This document shows positions 24,797-53,018 of a stretch of 64,000 nt of DNA, one piece after another. Source of the stretch: Candidatus Enterousia intestinigallinarum. GTDB taxonomy: Bacteria; Pseudomonadota; Alphaproteobacteria; Rs-D84. The stretch covers positions 24,609 through 88,608 of the forward strand of contig DVJI01000011.1 in the NCBI GenBank assembly GCA_018716885.1, given 5' to 3'. The notes under the pieces are model-generated. The model searched no databases and had not been told where the DNA came from. It worked only from the letters and a program-made list of their open reading frames with translations. The position numbers were made by a program, and so were the translations under genes. Numbering within the stretch: the stretch's first letter is position 1; each line of letters opens with the position of its first letter.

Positions 24797-25049
24797 AAAA
24801 AATTAAACCGCCACAGAAATGGCGGTCGGGCGTTTTCAAAATCATAACACGGATGATCCCGATGCTTTCGGATAAACCTGTTGTATAACATCGGACGCCC
24901 GACATTACGGCCGGGCATAACGATGCGAAATGCATCATTTGCAATATGGATTACGATGCATTCGCATCGCGTGTTATGGGTTTTGAAAGACCCGAACCCA
25001 CATCCCTGTGGATTCAGTGCAATGATATACGATTTTTTTTATAACGCAA
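24797..25049 (-). ncRNA. C4-antisense-like structured leader/attenuator, module C (upstream of GT2)
   Basis: TTGCGT-N16-TATCAT promoter; GGG-tcTTTCAAAA-CCC-ATAACACG complementary to downstream CGTGTTAT-GA-TTTTGAAA; alternative stems into terminator ACCGCC/GGCGGT-ttaatttttt; G-U pairs favour minus strand. Confidence 0.7.
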
Positions 25050-25056
25050 AATAAAA

Positions 25057-25089
25057 AATAACACCGCGTAATAATGATGCGGTGTTATT
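25057..25089 (-). terminator. Terminator of the OmpA-family gene
   Basis: AATAACACCGC...GCGGTGTTATT stem with U tract on minus strand. Confidence 0.8.
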
Positions 25090-25104
25090 GTTCGATGATA
25101 CAGA

Positions 25105-25752
25105 TTATTTGTTGGGAATAATCTTGATTTCAACACGACGGTTTTGCTGGCGTCCGTCCGCAGTTGTGTTAGACGCAATCGGATTGGATGACCCCATACC
25201 CATAATTTCAAACCGCGATGATTTTACACCCTGGCCCTGCAGATATGCAGCAACCGCATTTGCACGCTGGGCTGACAAGGTCTGGTTGTATTCTGCGCTG
25301 CCAGTGCTGTCGGTATAGCCCAAAACCATAACTGTTGAATTGTCATATTTATTCAAAACCTTGGCCACGGAATTCAATGTGGCATAAAATCCGGCGTTTA
25401 TATCCGCAGAATCAGTGCGGAACGTAATATTACCCGGCATAACCAGGCGTATATTATCACCATCACGAATAACACTGACGCCGGTTGATGCCAATTCGGC
25501 GCGCAATTCGGCCTCTTGCGTGTCCATATAGTATCCAACGCCACCGCCAACCGCCGCGCCGGCCAATCCGCCAACCAATGCGCCCGCCCCACGGTTATTA
25601 GAAACCAGCGCACCCGTCGCCGCACCAGTTGCCGCACCAATGGCGGTTCCCCACACAGATTTAGCCGTTTGCGATTCGCCAGTATAAGGATTTACCGTTG
25701 TACACCCCGCAACAAACGCACAAATTACAAGCAACGAACAAAATTTTTTCAT
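25105..25752 (-). CDS. OmpA-family glycine-zipper lipoprotein (YiaD-like)
   Basis: Lipobox VAGC, glycine zipper, GYTDSTGSAEYNQTLSAQRA, NRRVEI. Confidence 0.93.
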   Translation of the reverse strand: MKKFCSLLVICAFVAGCTTVNPYTGESQTAKSVWGTAIGAATGAATGALVSNNRGAGALVGGLAGAAVGGGVGYYMDTQEAELRAELASTGVSVIRDGDNIRLVMPGNITFRTDSADINAGFYATLNSVAKVLNKYDNSTVMVLGYTDSTGSAEYNQTLSAQRANAVAAYLQGQGVKSSRFEIMGMGSSNPIASNTTADGRQQNRRVEIKIIPNK

Positions 25753-25810
25753 ACTTTCCCCCTTGGATAAATAACACGTGTTCTATATTAAATAAAAAAC
25801 GCAAAAATGG

Positions 25811-26047
25811 CAAAAAAAATCGCCCGGTGGGCGATTTATTTTGTGGTGGATGGCTGGGGATTCCCTCGCACGGCGCGAAAGTCGCACCGGCTGCGGGGCA
25901 TTCGTTCGCGTATGCCGTTGGCATACTGCACTCGCATTTTATTAAAATGCTCGTTGACTCATTGTCAAACACCCCGCGGGGGTTTTCGTCCCACATCCCC
26001 GTACACAAAAAAAATCGCCCGGTGGGCGATTTATTTTGTGGTGGATG
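25811..26047 (-). repeat. 42-bp exact direct repeat (tRNA-Val 3' end plus terminator) at 25811-25852 and 26006-26047 enclosing a 153-bp multi-hairpin insert
   Basis: caaaaaaaatcgcccggtgggcgatttattttgtggtggatg present twice. Confidence 0.95.
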
Positions 26048-26115
26048 TTGAGGGACTCAAACCCCCGACCCTCTCGGTGTAAACGAGATGCTCTAATCAA
26101 CTGAGCTAAACATCC
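26039..26115 (-). tRNA. tRNA-Val(TAC)
   Basis: ggatgtttagctcagttgattagagcatctcgtttacaccgagagggtcgggggtttgagtccctcaacatccacca; cloverleaf, encoded CCA. Confidence 0.95.
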
Positions 26116-26164
26116 AAAACGGTGGACAAATATTAGGGTATTTTTTTCCACTTGTCCAGTTTTT

Positions 26165-50585: not shown

Positions 50586-50609
50586 CATCCGGCGTGATTA
50601 TGGTAAAAT
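50582..50609 (+). promoter_or_regulatory. Sigma70 promoter for accBC
   Basis: TTGACA-N16-TAAAAT with extended TG. Confidence 0.6.
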
Positions 50610-50671
50610 TCCAGGCACATTGAACAGTTTAGTAAGTGTTCGTACAAGGTTTATATATAAAAGGATAGAAA

Positions 50672-51130
50672 ATGTCATTTCGTGCAACCGTTGAATCTAT
50701 GTCAAAGATAATGGATGAAATGGGGATTACTGAATTGGATTTGGAACGCCAGTTTTTGTTCGGCGTTTATCGCAAGCATATTCATCTGTCAAAACAACAG
50801 GGCACCACGGCCGTTGCTATGCCGAATTTCCCGGTGGCGACAGAATCTAAAAATACAAACAGTGAACCGGCCCCGGCCGATAACAATACAATCAGTGGAT
50901 ATGCATTGAAATCACCAATGGTTGGTGTTGCATACCTGGCACCAGAACCGGGGGCAAAGCCGTTCACATCGGTTGGTGCACAAATCAAGGCCGGCGACAC
51001 CGTCGCATTGATAGAGGCAATGAAAACATTTAACCCGATTAAATCCGACAAGGACGGTGTTGTAAAAGAAATCTTGGTATCCGACGGCCAGGCCGTTGAA
51101 TTTGATCAACCTATTATCGTTATTGAATAA
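50672..51130 (+). CDS. accB: Acetyl-CoA carboxylase biotin carboxyl carrier protein
   Basis: KSPMVG, EAMKTFN biotinylation motif. Confidence 0.96.
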   Translation: MSFRATVESMSKIMDEMGITELDLERQFLFGVYRKHIHLSKQQGTTAVAMPNFPVATESKNTNSEPAPADNNTISGYALKSPMVGVAYLAPEPGAKPFTSVGAQIKAGDTVALIEAMKTFNPIKSDKDGVVKEILVSDGQAVEFDQPIIVIE

Positions 51131-51153
51131 GCAATACGGGCGACGAAACAAAA

Positions 51154-52566
51154 ATGTCACAGATAAAAAAAGTTTTGATTGCCAATCGTGGTGAAATTGC
51201 GCTGCGTATTATTCGCGCGTGCCGCGATATGGGCATACGCACGGTTGCGGTTTATTCAACAGTGGATAAAAACGCAATGCACGTGCAGTTGGCGGACGAA
51301 TCCGTGTGCATAGGTCCGGGTCCGTCCAAGGATTCTTATTTGAACGAATCCGCAATTTTGACGGCGGCGTTGCTGACAAATGCGGACGCAATTCACCCCG
51401 GATATGGATTTTTATCCGAACGCGCGGACTTTGCGCAAAAGGTGGAACAACACGGACTGATTTGGATTGGGCCGTCCGCCGCAATGATTGAAAAAATGGG
51501 GGACAAGGTCAATGCCAAGCAAACCGCGATTGCGTGCGGTCTGCCGGTGGTGCCGGGTTCCGACGGTGCGGTTGATACGCTGGAAGATGCGTATGCCTGG
51601 GCCGAAAAAATCGGATATCCCGTTATGCTAAAGGCGGCGGCCGGCGGCGGCGGACGTGGAATACGCCCGGTAATGAACGCCGAACAAATGGCCGAAGCGT
51701 TCCAAATGACCAAGAACGAGGCAAAATCCGGATTCGGCGACGATACGCTGTATATGGAAAAACTGTTGATGCACCCGCGTCATATTGAATTCCAGGTTCT
51801 GGGTGATACGCACGGAAACGTCGTTATATTTGGTGAACGCGACTGTTCGCTGCAACGTAAAAATCAAAAGGTTATGGAAGAATGTCCCGCCGCAATTTTA
51901 ACCCAGAAACAGCGCGACGATATGATTGAAATCTGTAAAAGTGCCGCGAAAAAAATGGGCTATGTCAATGCGGGAACGTTTGAATTTATGTTCGAAGACG
52001 GAAAGTTTTATTTCCTGGAAATGAACACCCGTCTGCAGGTTGAACACCCGGTAACCGAAATGGTGTACGGCGTTGATTTGGTACGCGAACAAATACGTAT
52101 CGCGGCCGGAGAAAAATTGGGATACACACAATCCAACGTTGTTCCACACGGACACGCGATTGAATTTCGTATCAATGCCGAAGATCCGGAAACTTTTATC
52201 CCGAATCCGGGCAAAATCACACTGTACGCGCCGTCGGGCGGACTGGGCGTGCGTGTGGACAGCGCGGTGTACACCGGATATACAATTCCGCCGACCTATG
52301 ATTCGATGATTGCAAAACTGATTGTTCACGCACAAAGCAGACCGGCGTGTATTATGCGTGCGGGTCGTGCACTGGACGAATTTGTTATCGAAGGCGTCAA
52401 AACAACAATCCCATTGCAACAGAAATTGTTAAAAAATCGCGATGTAAAGACGTTAAACTTTGACAATCATTGGTTGGAATCATATCTGAAATCTGAACGT
52501 GACAAGGCCGCCGCCAAACAGGCGCGCGCCGAAAAGACGGCGGATTCGGATGCAGAAAAAGAATAA
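51154..52566 (+). CDS. accC: Biotin carboxylase
   Basis: ANRGEIA, IHPGYGFLSE, GGGGRG, EMNTRLQVEHPVTE. Confidence 0.98.
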   Translation: MSQIKKVLIANRGEIALRIIRACRDMGIRTVAVYSTVDKNAMHVQLADESVCIGPGPSKDSYLNESAILTAALLTNADAIHPGYGFLSERADFAQKVEQHGLIWIGPSAAMIEKMGDKVNAKQTAIACGLPVVPGSDGAVDTLEDAYAWAEKIGYPVMLKAAAGGGGRGIRPVMNAEQMAEAFQMTKNEAKSGFGDDTLYMEKLLMHPRHIEFQVLGDTHGNVVIFGERDCSLQRKNQKVMEECPAAILTQKQRDDMIEICKSAAKKMGYVNAGTFEFMFEDGKFYFLEMNTRLQVEHPVTEMVYGVDLVREQIRIAAGEKLGYTQSNVVPHGHAIEFRINAEDPETFIPNPGKITLYAPSGGLGVRVDSAVYTGYTIPPTYDSMIAKLIVHAQSRPACIMRAGRALDEFVIEGVKTTIPLQQKLLKNRDVKTLNFDNHWLESYLKSERDKAAAKQARAEKTADSDAEKE

Positions 52567-52592
52567 AAAACACCGGCAAATGCCGGTGTTTT

Positions 52593-52793
52593 TTATATAA
52601 ACTTTTTCGGTATTTTTTCCAGCGGATGGCGCGCCGCATCAATAAACATTATCAGTTGAAAAATTGTTGGCGAACACCGCCCGGTAATTATTTGATGATA
52701 GCCCGCCATATCGGTGGAAAAAACATCGTACGCAATAAACAGCGGCATATTGCATTTGATTCTGATTTGTTCTATTTCCGCGCCCAGTGTCAT
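52593..52793 (-). CDS. Small divergent XRE/HTH_3-like protein
   Basis: GGGGG RBS; spacing LGAEIEQIR...M.......Y..I..G...P....L..F..A fits a Cro/C1-type HTH pattern. Confidence 0.55.
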   Translation of the reverse strand: MTLGAEIEQIRIKCNMPLFIAYDVFSTDMAGYHQIITGRCSPTIFQLIMFIDAARHPLEKIPKKFI

Positions 52794-52809
52794 TTTGCCC
52801 CCAAATATT

Positions 52810-53018
52810 CAAAAACAAAACCACCGGAAAAAACCAGGTGGTTGGAGGTTCACAACAATTGTCAAGAATTGCGACTTTTATTCAATATATTCAAAGTCCC
52901 TCCAACCGGGGGTTGGAGTTTTTTTCGTCCCTGCGGACGCTTGACAATGGGTTGTGAATCCCAGTGACAGAACACCCGTCACATTTAACATTATACGCAC
53001 CGTAATTTAATATTGCAA
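52810..53018 (-). ncRNA. C4-antisense-like structured leader/attenuator, module B (upstream of XRE-like ORF)
   Basis: TTGCAA-N17-TATAAT; GGGA-TTCACAAC-CC-ATTGTCAAG complementary to CTTGACAAT-t-GTTGTGAA; CTCCAAC/GTTGGAG versus GGTTGGAGG/CCTCCAACC overlapping terminator AACCACC/GGTGGTT. Confidence 0.78.

Follow-up and report, generated by a model that had tools for sequence, protein, structure and literature searches.

The window analyzed here, a stretch of 64,000 nucleotides (nt) from Candidatus Enterousia intestinigallinarum (contig DVJI01000011.1, positions 24,609 to 88,608), carries on its minus strand three intergenic modules, A, B and C, that share a single order of RNA parts. Each module is probably (we put the likelihood at roughly 0.6) a cis-acting leader RNA that gates the gene downstream of it by intrinsic termination, using a clamped three-strand switch. 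The three strands, termed X, X′ and X2, constitute a three-way covarying switch in A, B and C, and the proposed clamp is a bipartite pairing between two segments of the 5′ domain, a′ and b′, and two target segments, b and a, that lie just upstream of X2. When compared with related sequences, the whole module appears to be a variant of a widespread three-part cassette in which the target at the ribosome-binding site (RBS) is replaced by a terminator.

All three modules have the same architecture. The minus strand begins with a promoter-like site, followed by hairpin P0, hairpin P1 (GGG(G)-a′-CC(C)), single-stranded b′, the P2 hairpin or hairpins, and P3, which is composed of X, a loop and X′. 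These are followed by P4, a hairpin with a large loop, by P5, a small hairpin with b in its loop, by single-stranded a, and by X2, which repeats X and shares bases with the 5′ strand of an intrinsic terminator. An RBS and a gene are found 15-35 nt beyond the terminator. The original prediction had proposed this shared order of parts, and all of the sequences it quoted are present at their places on the minus strand. The covarying switch stems it named are likewise found as X/X′/X2 triplets, CUCCUGA in A, CUCCAAC in B and GCCCGGC/CGCCCGAC in C. Its σ70 promoters hold for A and B, where TTGCAA-17-TATAAT is predicted, while the site in C is weaker and falls below the threshold of the scan. The minimum free energy (MFE) folds from RNAfold, compared with dinucleotide shuffles, give z values of −8.0 (C), −5.4 (A) and −5.6 (B), and each contains a long-range a′:a and b′:b helix around P2-P4 in addition to the terminator. 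In the feature list that follows, the 3′ domain is the part described by our covariance model R1, which was built from this domain only, without the 5′ domain; it resembles the Rfam family sRNA-Xcc1.

A, 37654-37682, minus strand: promoter-like site TTGCAA-17-TATAAT from the promoter scan, ~7 nt before P0, at a place conserved in the family alignment
A, 37627-37647, minus strand: P0, the 5′ hairpin, from the fold
A, 37603-37626, minus strand: P1, GGGG-a′(CCUGAUAAC)-CCC, then single-stranded b′ (UUUACGUG)
A, 37614-37622, 37603-37610, 37488-37494 and 37478-37485, minus strand: recognition parts a′ (CCUGAUAAC), b′ (UUUACGUG), b (CACGUAA) and a (GUUAUCAG), respectively
A, 37556-37602, minus strand: P2 hairpin, from the fold
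A, 37562-37582, minus strand: internal terminator-like hairpin and T-run within P2 (scan site 37582..37570)
A, 37526-37546, minus strand: P3, the putative anti-antiterminator, X/X′ = CUCCUGA/UCAGGAG
A, 37468-37525, minus strand: 3′ domain (sRNA-Xcc1-like), 79.9 bits with R1, in the order X′, P4 (conserved loop GAAUACAUUGAAUAA), P5 with b in its loop, single-stranded a and X2 (CCUCCUGACC)
A, 37446-37471, minus strand: predicted intrinsic terminator, its 5′ strand overlapping X2, from the fold (the scan gives 37471..37450)
A, 36833-37417, minus strand: downstream genes for two small Cys-rich secreted proteins of 102 and 88 amino acids
B, 52990-53018, minus strand: promoter-like site TTGCAA-17-TATAAT from the scan, adjoining tRNA-Val (53063-53137, plus strand)
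B, 52940-52982, minus strand: 5′ domain with P0, P1 as GGG-a′(AUUCACAAC)-CC, and b′ (AUUGUCAAG)
B, 52951-52959, 52940-52948, 52858-52866 and 52849-52856, minus strand: recognition parts a′, b′, b and a, respectively
B, 52900-52918, minus strand: P3, X/X′ = CUCCAAC/GUUGGAG
B, 52840-52899, minus strand: 3′ domain, 82.3 bits with R1, with X′, P4 (loop GAAUAUAUUGAAUAA), P5 (b in its loop), a and X2 (CCUCCAACC)
B, 52811-52843, minus strand: intrinsic terminator with an AACC overlap with X2, predicted by the fold (the simple scan found none)
B, 52593-52793, minus strand: downstream gene for a 66-amino acid protein with no Pfam match
C, 25022-25049, minus strand: weaker promoter-like site TTGCGT-16-TATCAT, recognized from the sequence and below the scan threshold
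C, 24970-25014, minus strand: 5′ domain with P0, P1 as GGG-a′(UUUCAAAA)-CCC, and b′ (AUAACACG)
C, 24981-24988, 24970-24977, 24844-24851 and 24834-24841, minus strand: recognition parts a′, b′, b and a, respectively
C, 24897-24916, minus strand: P3, X/X′ = GCCCGGC/GUCGGGC, with one G-U pair
C, 24816-24904, minus strand: 3′ domain with X′, P4 (UAUACAACAG...GAAA), P5 (b in its loop), a and X2 (CGCCCGAC)
C, 24797-24827, minus strand: predicted intrinsic terminator, from the fold (the scan gives 24827..24806)
C, 23871-24779, minus strand: downstream gene for a family 2 glycosyltransferase of 302 amino acids

Compensatory change was assessed on 59 copies of the 3′ domain from relatives, aligned by fitting to the model. 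In this alignment the paired cells amount to 96%, compensatory changes are seen at 18 of 19 pairs, and the G-U pairs sit on the sense strand. The covariation score is 0.596, compared with 0.204 for shuffled alignments (0 of 500 reach 0.596) and 0.06-0.09 when the partners are slid. There are 19 distinct X′ 9-mers, each with a matching X and X2. A run of at least 6 base pairs (bp) joins X to X′ in 56 of 59 modules, compared with 44.5% of non-cognate pairs; X:X′ often includes G-U pairs, while X′:X2 is Watson-Crick and 1-2 bp longer. The P5 hairpin also covaries (CAAUU/AAUUG, CUAU/AUAG, GAUCAU/AUGAUU), which suggests that its local hairpin state is under selection, though full b:b′ pairing invades it. 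The free helices P0, P2 and P4, which the three-way pairing does not lock, are as variable among paralogs as a and b. Conserved unpaired loops are found among these freely covarying stems, in P4 (GAAUAUAUUGAAUAA) and in P0 (GGGUGUUCC), and they differ between subtypes. The most conserved of these, the P4 loop, lacks a complement anywhere else in the genome.

The pairing of a′b′ with ba was evaluated by duplex energy, using the 24 nt before X2 of each module against the entire upstream region of every module, such that support for a′:a and b′:b is expressed as cognate versus non-cognate energies. Energies for whole segments were too noisy and were set aside in favor of this 24-nt target. Among the 27 parsed copies of the genome, cognate pairs average −16.8 kcal/mol versus −9.4 kcal/mol for non-cognate pairs, and for 17 of them no other pair, in either direction, equals the cognate one. 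The same test on 57 copies from relatives, which were found with the model lacking the 5′ domain, places the bipartite a′..b′ where it is expected and gives −17.6 versus −11.4 kcal/mol, an independent confirmation of the recognition pairing. The covariation of the recognition segments that the original prediction described for three modules extends to the family. In geometry, a′ is presented in a hairpin loop with single-stranded b′ after it, and b is in a hairpin loop with single-stranded a after it. The a′ segment is semiconserved (G/C-U-N-N-N-A-A/G-C), and some paralogs share it exactly, as does CUUAAGAAC in three copies. Because the other free helices vary equally, the differing a/b codes are what neutral compensatory drift would be expected to produce.

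These elements combine into a switch with the following proposed steps. The leader, ~175-235 nt long, would be transcribed from its own predicted σ70-type promoter. When X′ pairs with X to form P3, X2 would be left free and the terminator would form. When X′ instead pairs with X2, as in the closing helix of the sRNA-Xcc1-like fold, the AACC at the base of the terminator stem would be taken up and X′:X2 would act as an antiterminator. The clamp would bias this choice: the 5′ domain, with a′ in the loop of its GGGG...CCYC hairpin and b′ single stranded, would pair with b in the P5 loop and with a upstream of X2, and the GGGG at the base of P1 could extend the pairing to the CCUC at the start of X2. 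So positioned, the clamp would cover the X2 toehold and exclude X′:X2, locking the leader in the terminating fold. The default state would then be OFF, and read-through would need the clamp to be kept from forming or P3 to be opened.

Folding calculations on the 27 parsed modules, in which P3 (X:X′) or the antiterminator (X′:X2) was imposed in turn, are consistent with this scheme. When the 5′ domain is included, P3 wins by a mean of 9.4 kcal/mol in the full leader and 8.5 kcal/mol in a nascent RNA that extends to X2, whereas removal of this domain shifts the preference to the antiterminator, by 1.2-2.0 kcal/mol. These energies suggest that formation of the clamp would amount to termination and that the switch would be poised near balance when the clamp is missing. 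The X′:X2 helix has one or two additional pairs at each end, giving X2 a toehold on X′, and the gap between a and X2 is only 2-3 nt. Because this gap is so short, the 18-bp a′b′:ba helix is not expected to coexist with X′:X2 as a pseudoknot. Together, the X2 toehold, the GGGG:CCUC pairing and the short a-X2 gap point to a preference for the terminator that depends on the clamp.

The genome examined (919 kb in 13 contigs, 98% complete) contains 36-38 copies by iterated nhmmer and covariance-model searches, so the three copies of the original prediction are correct for the window and a small part of the whole. Its proposal of a paralogous family of promoter-to-terminator leaders is borne out by the covariance model, R1, which when built and searched returns 36 copies from the genome. 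Iteration of nhmmer from A/B-type seeds gives 27 matches, and from C-type seeds it converges on 38, with all A/B-type copies included; because the C-type search also recovers every A/B-type copy, A, B and C belong to one superfamily. Genome-wide, the motif GAATAYATTGAATAA in the P4 loop of A and B is present at 12 sites, each of them with the same architecture. The MutS protein of this genome shares 72-87% identity with MutS of "Candidatus Enterousia" and other alphaproteobacterial metagenome-assembled genomes from the gut. In the genus, 60 of 61 genomes have copies by R1, with a maximum of 63 per ~1-Mb genome, and in the family 94 of 101 genomes and 16 of 18 genera do. Weaker matches occur in 15 other alphaproteobacterial genomes among ~300 sampled, and these loci show the full architecture, including the terminator.

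Some copies stand in tandem. At the tRNA-Val locus of a relative (genome G085, L151:930-2010, minus strand), which is orthologous to window 52593-53140, four tandem units precede the same small open reading frame (ORF), with a separate promoter, a′/b′ code and terminator for each. Arrays of two to three units are also present in the relatives' loci L148 and L131. Other copies lie at contig ends, upstream of XRE-like genes (MSDNHRQK..., MSNHDITD...), at C5:7477-7642, C6:52-216, C12:8657-8733, C1:158-352 and C8:27380-27575 (contig:positions, all outside the window), and their downstream sequence is identical on different contigs, which points to assembly breaks at repeats, recombinant leaders or heterogeneity among strains.

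The nearest described family is sRNA-Xcc1 (Rfam RF02221, gathering cutoff 53 bits), of which the modules appear, on sequence similarity, to be a divergent, terminator-coupled and massively amplified chromosomal variant. It is the only Rfam family that responds, and it aligns full-length to X′-P4-P5-a-X2 of C-type modules. Ten C-type modules score 35.7-49.2 bits (E values of 1e-6 to 2e-3), among them module C at 38.8 bits; of the A/B-type loci tested only L094 matches (36.4 bits), and no module copy reaches the cutoff. The 3′ half of the modules matches sRNA-Xcc1 below its cutoff, and the Brt RNAs of Bartonella, considered below, are a studied analogue with the same XRE association. As in sRNA-Xcc1, the 3′ domain consists of a closing helix (X′:X2) around a long P4-like hairpin, a smaller one and then a short single strand; the P4-like hairpin of C-type copies has the same AUACAA...GAA motif, and the element is positioned directly upstream of a gene. 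The families differ in number and setting, as sRNA-Xcc1 is present in ~1-6 copies per classical genome, mostly in prophage- or island-like regions, compared with 36-63 chromosomal copies of the modules. The founding sRNA-Xcc1 is an 88-nt RNA of Xanthomonas campestris detected by Northern blot and rapid amplification of cDNA ends (PMC2996969). By homology, the "target" part of the original prediction would correspond to this stable RNA. Elsewhere, sRNA-Xcc1 is found upstream of symE in integron cassettes (bioRxiv 10.1101/2025.06.18.660453) and, in our data, upstream of an ORF6N gene in APSE phages; in Xylella, where it lies in islands, it adjoins isrK and C4 and forms arrays (PMC12189769).

For comparison we analyzed 25 bona fide sRNA-Xcc1 loci (L165-L189) from other Proteobacteria. 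A three-part cassette surrounds every sRNA-Xcc1 element examined (e.g., L188, ~1400-1640), with b and a carried by the core. Located 45-90 nt upstream of the core is GGGG-a′-CCCC-b′, with a′/b′ matching the core a/b, followed by a hairpin with the motif RCACCCGACAG and a T-run. At the start of the next gene is a third copy, a″-Shine-Dalgarno-b″-AUG, for example CCUGAAAGAGGAGACACAAGCCAUG. Self pairings exceed non-self pairings on both sides of the core (−25.7 versus −20.2 kcal/mol upstream; −18.9 versus −14.0 kcal/mol downstream). The upstream element of these loci is not recognized by Rfam, which knows only the middle piece. Enterousia modules share with these loci the cognate upstream a′b′ partner. 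However, a third a″b″ copy is absent from the RBS of Enterousia modules (self −7.2 versus non-self −7.6 kcal/mol). Thus, classical loci have an RBS copy and no terminator, whereas the Enterousia modules have a terminator and no RBS copy. The layout of the three-part cassette parallels CI/seqA/seqC of phage P4, and it suggests that sRNA-Xcc1 is the middle of a self-pairing cassette, in contrast to its present annotation as a stand-alone, trans-acting virulence small RNA (sRNA).

The genes that follow the modules fit a role for the RNA as a leader. All copies are co-oriented with the downstream gene, and in ~31 of 36 the start codon is ~15-45 nt from the terminator, with no room for another promoter. 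Most of the downstream ORFs encode small secreted proteins with 7-17% Cys and no Pfam match; this Cys-rich set, at window 36833-37417 and ~19 other loci of the genome, is the main cargo, and one of its subfamilies begins MKKHLIIAGIICAA...VTKCV. XRE-type helix-turn-helix (HTH) proteins (HTH_3, HTH_31, HTH_19) follow at least eight modules. Further cargo includes a 1154-amino acid autotransporter, an outer-membrane β-barrel protein, two PAP2 phosphatases and the family 2 glycosyltransferase of module C, and in more distant relatives lipoproteins and a DNA methylase-like protein are also found. The original prediction of nonphage cargo (the glycosyltransferase, Cys-rich secreted proteins and XRE-type HTH proteins) is therefore upheld, and no prophage genes stand beside modules in the window.

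Several observations weigh against a cis-acting, clamped attenuator. The promoters, termination and read-through are all predictions, and the covariation was counted on an alignment fitted to the model. Indeed, we infer, and do not observe, termination and read-through, the identity of the ON state and any action in trans. The antiterminator overlaps the terminator stem by only ~4 nt. Moreover, in the modeled energetics the cis clamp is predicted to give constitutive termination by both kinetics and thermodynamics. Relatives carry gene-free tandem arrays of complete promoter-module-terminator units, which suggests a possible separate function for the terminated RNA. There are also exceptions among the copies: the contig-end copies on C5 and C6 have b:b′ intact and a:a′ mismatched, and a deletion variant at C7:15261-15329, in which the 5′ domain (GGGGTATAAGAACCTC GAAAGACAA) is joined straight to X2 and the terminator with an XRE-like gene next, lacks X, X′, P4, P5, b and a.

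The foremost alternative, and the model of the original prediction, is a trans antisense loop in the style of P4 CI or P1 c4, in which terminated or processed leaders would bind nascent transcripts of the same locus through the a/b address and cause their termination, giving negative feedback or an expression pulse. We regard this as unlikely by itself; it could operate on top of the cis model. Its recognition geometry is the loop-plus-tail design of C4 with isrK/c4-a1b1 in P4, and the P1 and P5 hairpins are conserved with covariation despite competing with the extended helix, as is typical of loop-initiated antisense pairing. In CUCCUGA-type modules, including A, a terminator-like hairpin and T-run after b′ could release a short a′b′ RNA; a T-run also follows the 5′ domain in classical sRNA-Xcc1 loci, and the codes differ between paralogs. 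However, the cis partner is always present at a far higher local concentration, several paralogs share a′, which makes the addresses private only in part, no Hfq gene was detected in the genome, and the diversity of the a/b helices is not visibly above that of the other free helices. Address-coded trans feedback is thus a minority, though attractive, reading. In its fullest form, which we consider doubtful, the modules would be self-addressed antisense attenuators whose terminated leaders feed back in trans, Hfq-free, only on RNAs with the same two-part address, creating a private on/off or pulse channel for each surface-protein or regulator gene behind the 36-63 copies of a genome. If true, this would mean that a gut symbiont with a reduced genome varies its surface repertoire item by item through RNA, by means of a system descended from a phage/integron immunity cassette, and sRNA-Xcc1 (perhaps with Brt) would represent one programmable c4-like riboregulator class and not generic "virulence sRNAs."

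A second alternative, which we judge somewhat less likely again, is a riboswitch-like attenuator in which the multi-helix junction, with its conserved P4 and P0 loops, binds a metabolite or an RNA-binding protein that tips X/X′/X2, a′:a and b′:b being merely the closing helix of the sensor. Conserved unpaired loops do stand among freely covarying stems, the switch is nearly isoenergetic when not clamped, some input must exist, and the Brt study itself put forward a riboswitch for those analogous RNAs (PMC5387305). Against this, the conserved loops differ by subtype, with C-type P4 having UAUACAACAG...GAAA, the regulated genes are functionally heterogeneous, and a closing helix of 16-20 bp far exceeds those of known aptamers. 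In addition, the homologous core of other Proteobacteria, carried on mobile elements, operates together with a third element that pairs at the RBS, which favors RNA-RNA logic over ligand logic.

Less probable still is that the modules are free-standing sRNA genes acting on other targets in trans, with the link to the downstream gene being secondary. Published work describes sRNA-Xcc1 as trans-acting, and for Brt1 an action in trans on badA has been suggested. A promoter and a terminator are predicted for every unit separately, gene-free tandem arrays occur in relatives as similar arrays do for Brt in Bartonella and for sRNA-Xcc1 in Xylella (PMC12189769), and related RNAs are abundant in cells. 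Yet the recognition segments complement the other half of the same RNA and not a shared external target, ~31 of 36 copies abut an ORF that has no other promoter, the genome has no detected Hfq gene, and the P4 loop has no complementary genome site. Finally, a DNA-level repeat (a miniature inverted-repeat transposable element or recombination site) or an assembly artifact is very improbable and was rejected on the basis of the strand-specific G-U pairs and fixed orientation: although the element is multicopy, with several copies at contig ends and long inverted complementarities, its orientation to the downstream gene is strictly consistent, its pairing is kept through G-U wobbles that are possible on one strand only, compensatory changes occur in every helix, terminal inverted repeats and target-site duplications are absent, and it is conserved over 16 genera at orthologous loci.

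A few further features of the modules and their surroundings were noted. In several genome modules (e.g., C7:46108-46150 and C10:261693-261716, outside the window), an A-run just ahead of the Shine-Dalgarno sequence can base-pair with the U-tract of the terminator (TTTTTTCAT...ATGAAAAA GGGAG). The additional hairpin so formed, located between terminator and RBS, is conserved among MKKHLIIAG... paralogs. On the antisense strand (window 52895-52928, plus strand, and the same place in other modules), P3 and the complement of the A-rich linker resemble an intrinsic terminator (CTCCAACCGGGGGTTGGAG TTTTTTT), which could block antisense transcription across the leader. Near-identical terminator hairpins (AAAAAACACCGGCATTTGCCGGTGTTTTTT) are present at several gene ends (window 30914-30952, 36805-36838 and 37700-37730), and these attract weak spurious Rfam matches (OrzO-P, SpF25 and STnc families) in a permissive scan.

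The abundance and setting of the modules bear on their interest. With approximately one leader-bearing transcription unit per 25 kb of a 0.9-Mb genome, they would rank among the most heavily used cis-regulatory RNAs for genome size. Their hosts are widespread, uncultured bacteria of the human and animal gut, and the cargo (Cys-rich secreted, outer-membrane, autotransporter, glycosyltransferase and PAP2 proteins and XRE regulators) comprises the genes likeliest to meet the host or neighboring microbes. No Hfq gene was detected in the 98%-complete, 919-kb genome, despite its dozens of antisense-like structured RNAs, and, judging from this gene content, dependence of the modules on Hfq is unlikely. 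A compact switch with a programmable address and no apparent protein requirement, in a host with no Hfq gene, is also of interest for RNA engineering.

The original prediction likened the modules to the C4 RNA of phages P1/P7 and the CI RNA of P4, a comparison that is fair for the recognition design and fails for family membership. C4 is processed by RNase P to a 70-80-nt RNA and represses in trans. In phage P4, the Rfam C4 model matches CI RNA at 74.9 bits, isrK (RF01394)/c4-a1b1 (RF03163) covers seqA, and seqC lies at the RBS; seqA presents one target in a hairpin loop and the other single stranded, with a terminator hairpin after them. The modules have the loop-plus-tail arrangement of phage P4 and of the Rfam C4 consensus, with a′ in a loop, single-stranded b′ and the reciprocal b/a in the same transcript. 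In both systems the codes covary between relatives and the pairing is linked to stopping downstream expression, which for the modules is predicted, and like the terminator of the modules, the seqA element of P4 (isrK model) ends in a terminator hairpin and U-run. Membership in the Rfam C4 clan (C4 RF01695, clan CL00128, cutoff 45 bits) was rejected, as there was no match at any threshold: C4, c4-2 and c4-a1b1 gave none in the window at the gathering score or at E ≤ 10, and none in 20 module loci with the most permissive filters. Across the whole genome and the genus C4 has 0 matches, versus 46 of 401 other Pseudomonadota. The order of P0 and P1 is the same, but the closing stem of C4 (~17 bp around two hairpins) and its 3′ CACCC are absent in the modules. 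Unlike C4/CI, the modules have only one partner pair, no second target at the RBS and a different order of parts; their predicted output is an intrinsic terminator under a three-way switch, and their cargo consists of chromosomal surface and regulator genes and not antirepressor or replication genes.

By analogy of topology, the Brt RNAs of Bartonella are the closest studied counterpart. Brt1-9 are transcripts located upstream of XRE-type trp genes (Tu et al. 2016, PMC5387305); they rank with the most abundant transcripts and terminate ahead of the XRE genes, of which very little is transcribed (PMC5387305). Given the shared topology, a default-OFF state of the modules would agree with these expression data, the only experimental ones on an RNA so built. 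Like the modules, Brt RNAs are alphaproteobacterial, multicopy and often tandem, and consist of a ~200-nt RNA with its own promoter, a 3′ hairpin and a small XRE HTH gene next, as in module B and ~8 other copies. In loci that we retrieved with the published probe sequence, the MFE structure of a Brt copy has a 5′ hairpin and then GGGAG-a′-b′, which pairs long-range with b-a-UUCCC around three hairpins, and a′ and b′ differ and covary between copies. The Brt RNAs, which are mechanistically unexplained, therefore share an architecture with the modules. However, R1 gives no sense-strand match to Brt, the nhmmer family profile has no match in seven Brt loci, and no Rfam family matches Brt; because the similarity is of topology only, homology between the two is unproven. 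They also differ in cargo, as Brt RNAs are reported only upstream of XRE genes and the modules mostly precede genes for Cys-rich secreted proteins, outer-membrane proteins, an autotransporter, PAP2 phosphatases and a family 2 glycosyltransferase.

Finally, the modules resemble leaders that employ a terminator, an antiterminator and an anti-antiterminator, such as the trp and pyr attenuators and OFF riboswitch platforms, in having three mutually exclusive pairings, X:X′, X′:X2 and X2 with the terminator. At the sequence level, they display the exclusive helices, the covariation at all three strands and the terminator directly before the gene that are characteristic of attenuators. Unlike the trp and pyr attenuators and riboswitches, they have no leader peptide, known ligand or protein, or tRNA input. 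In contrast to these classical attenuators, the balance of the module switch would be set by a long-range, bipartite, antisense-like clamp contained in the same RNA.

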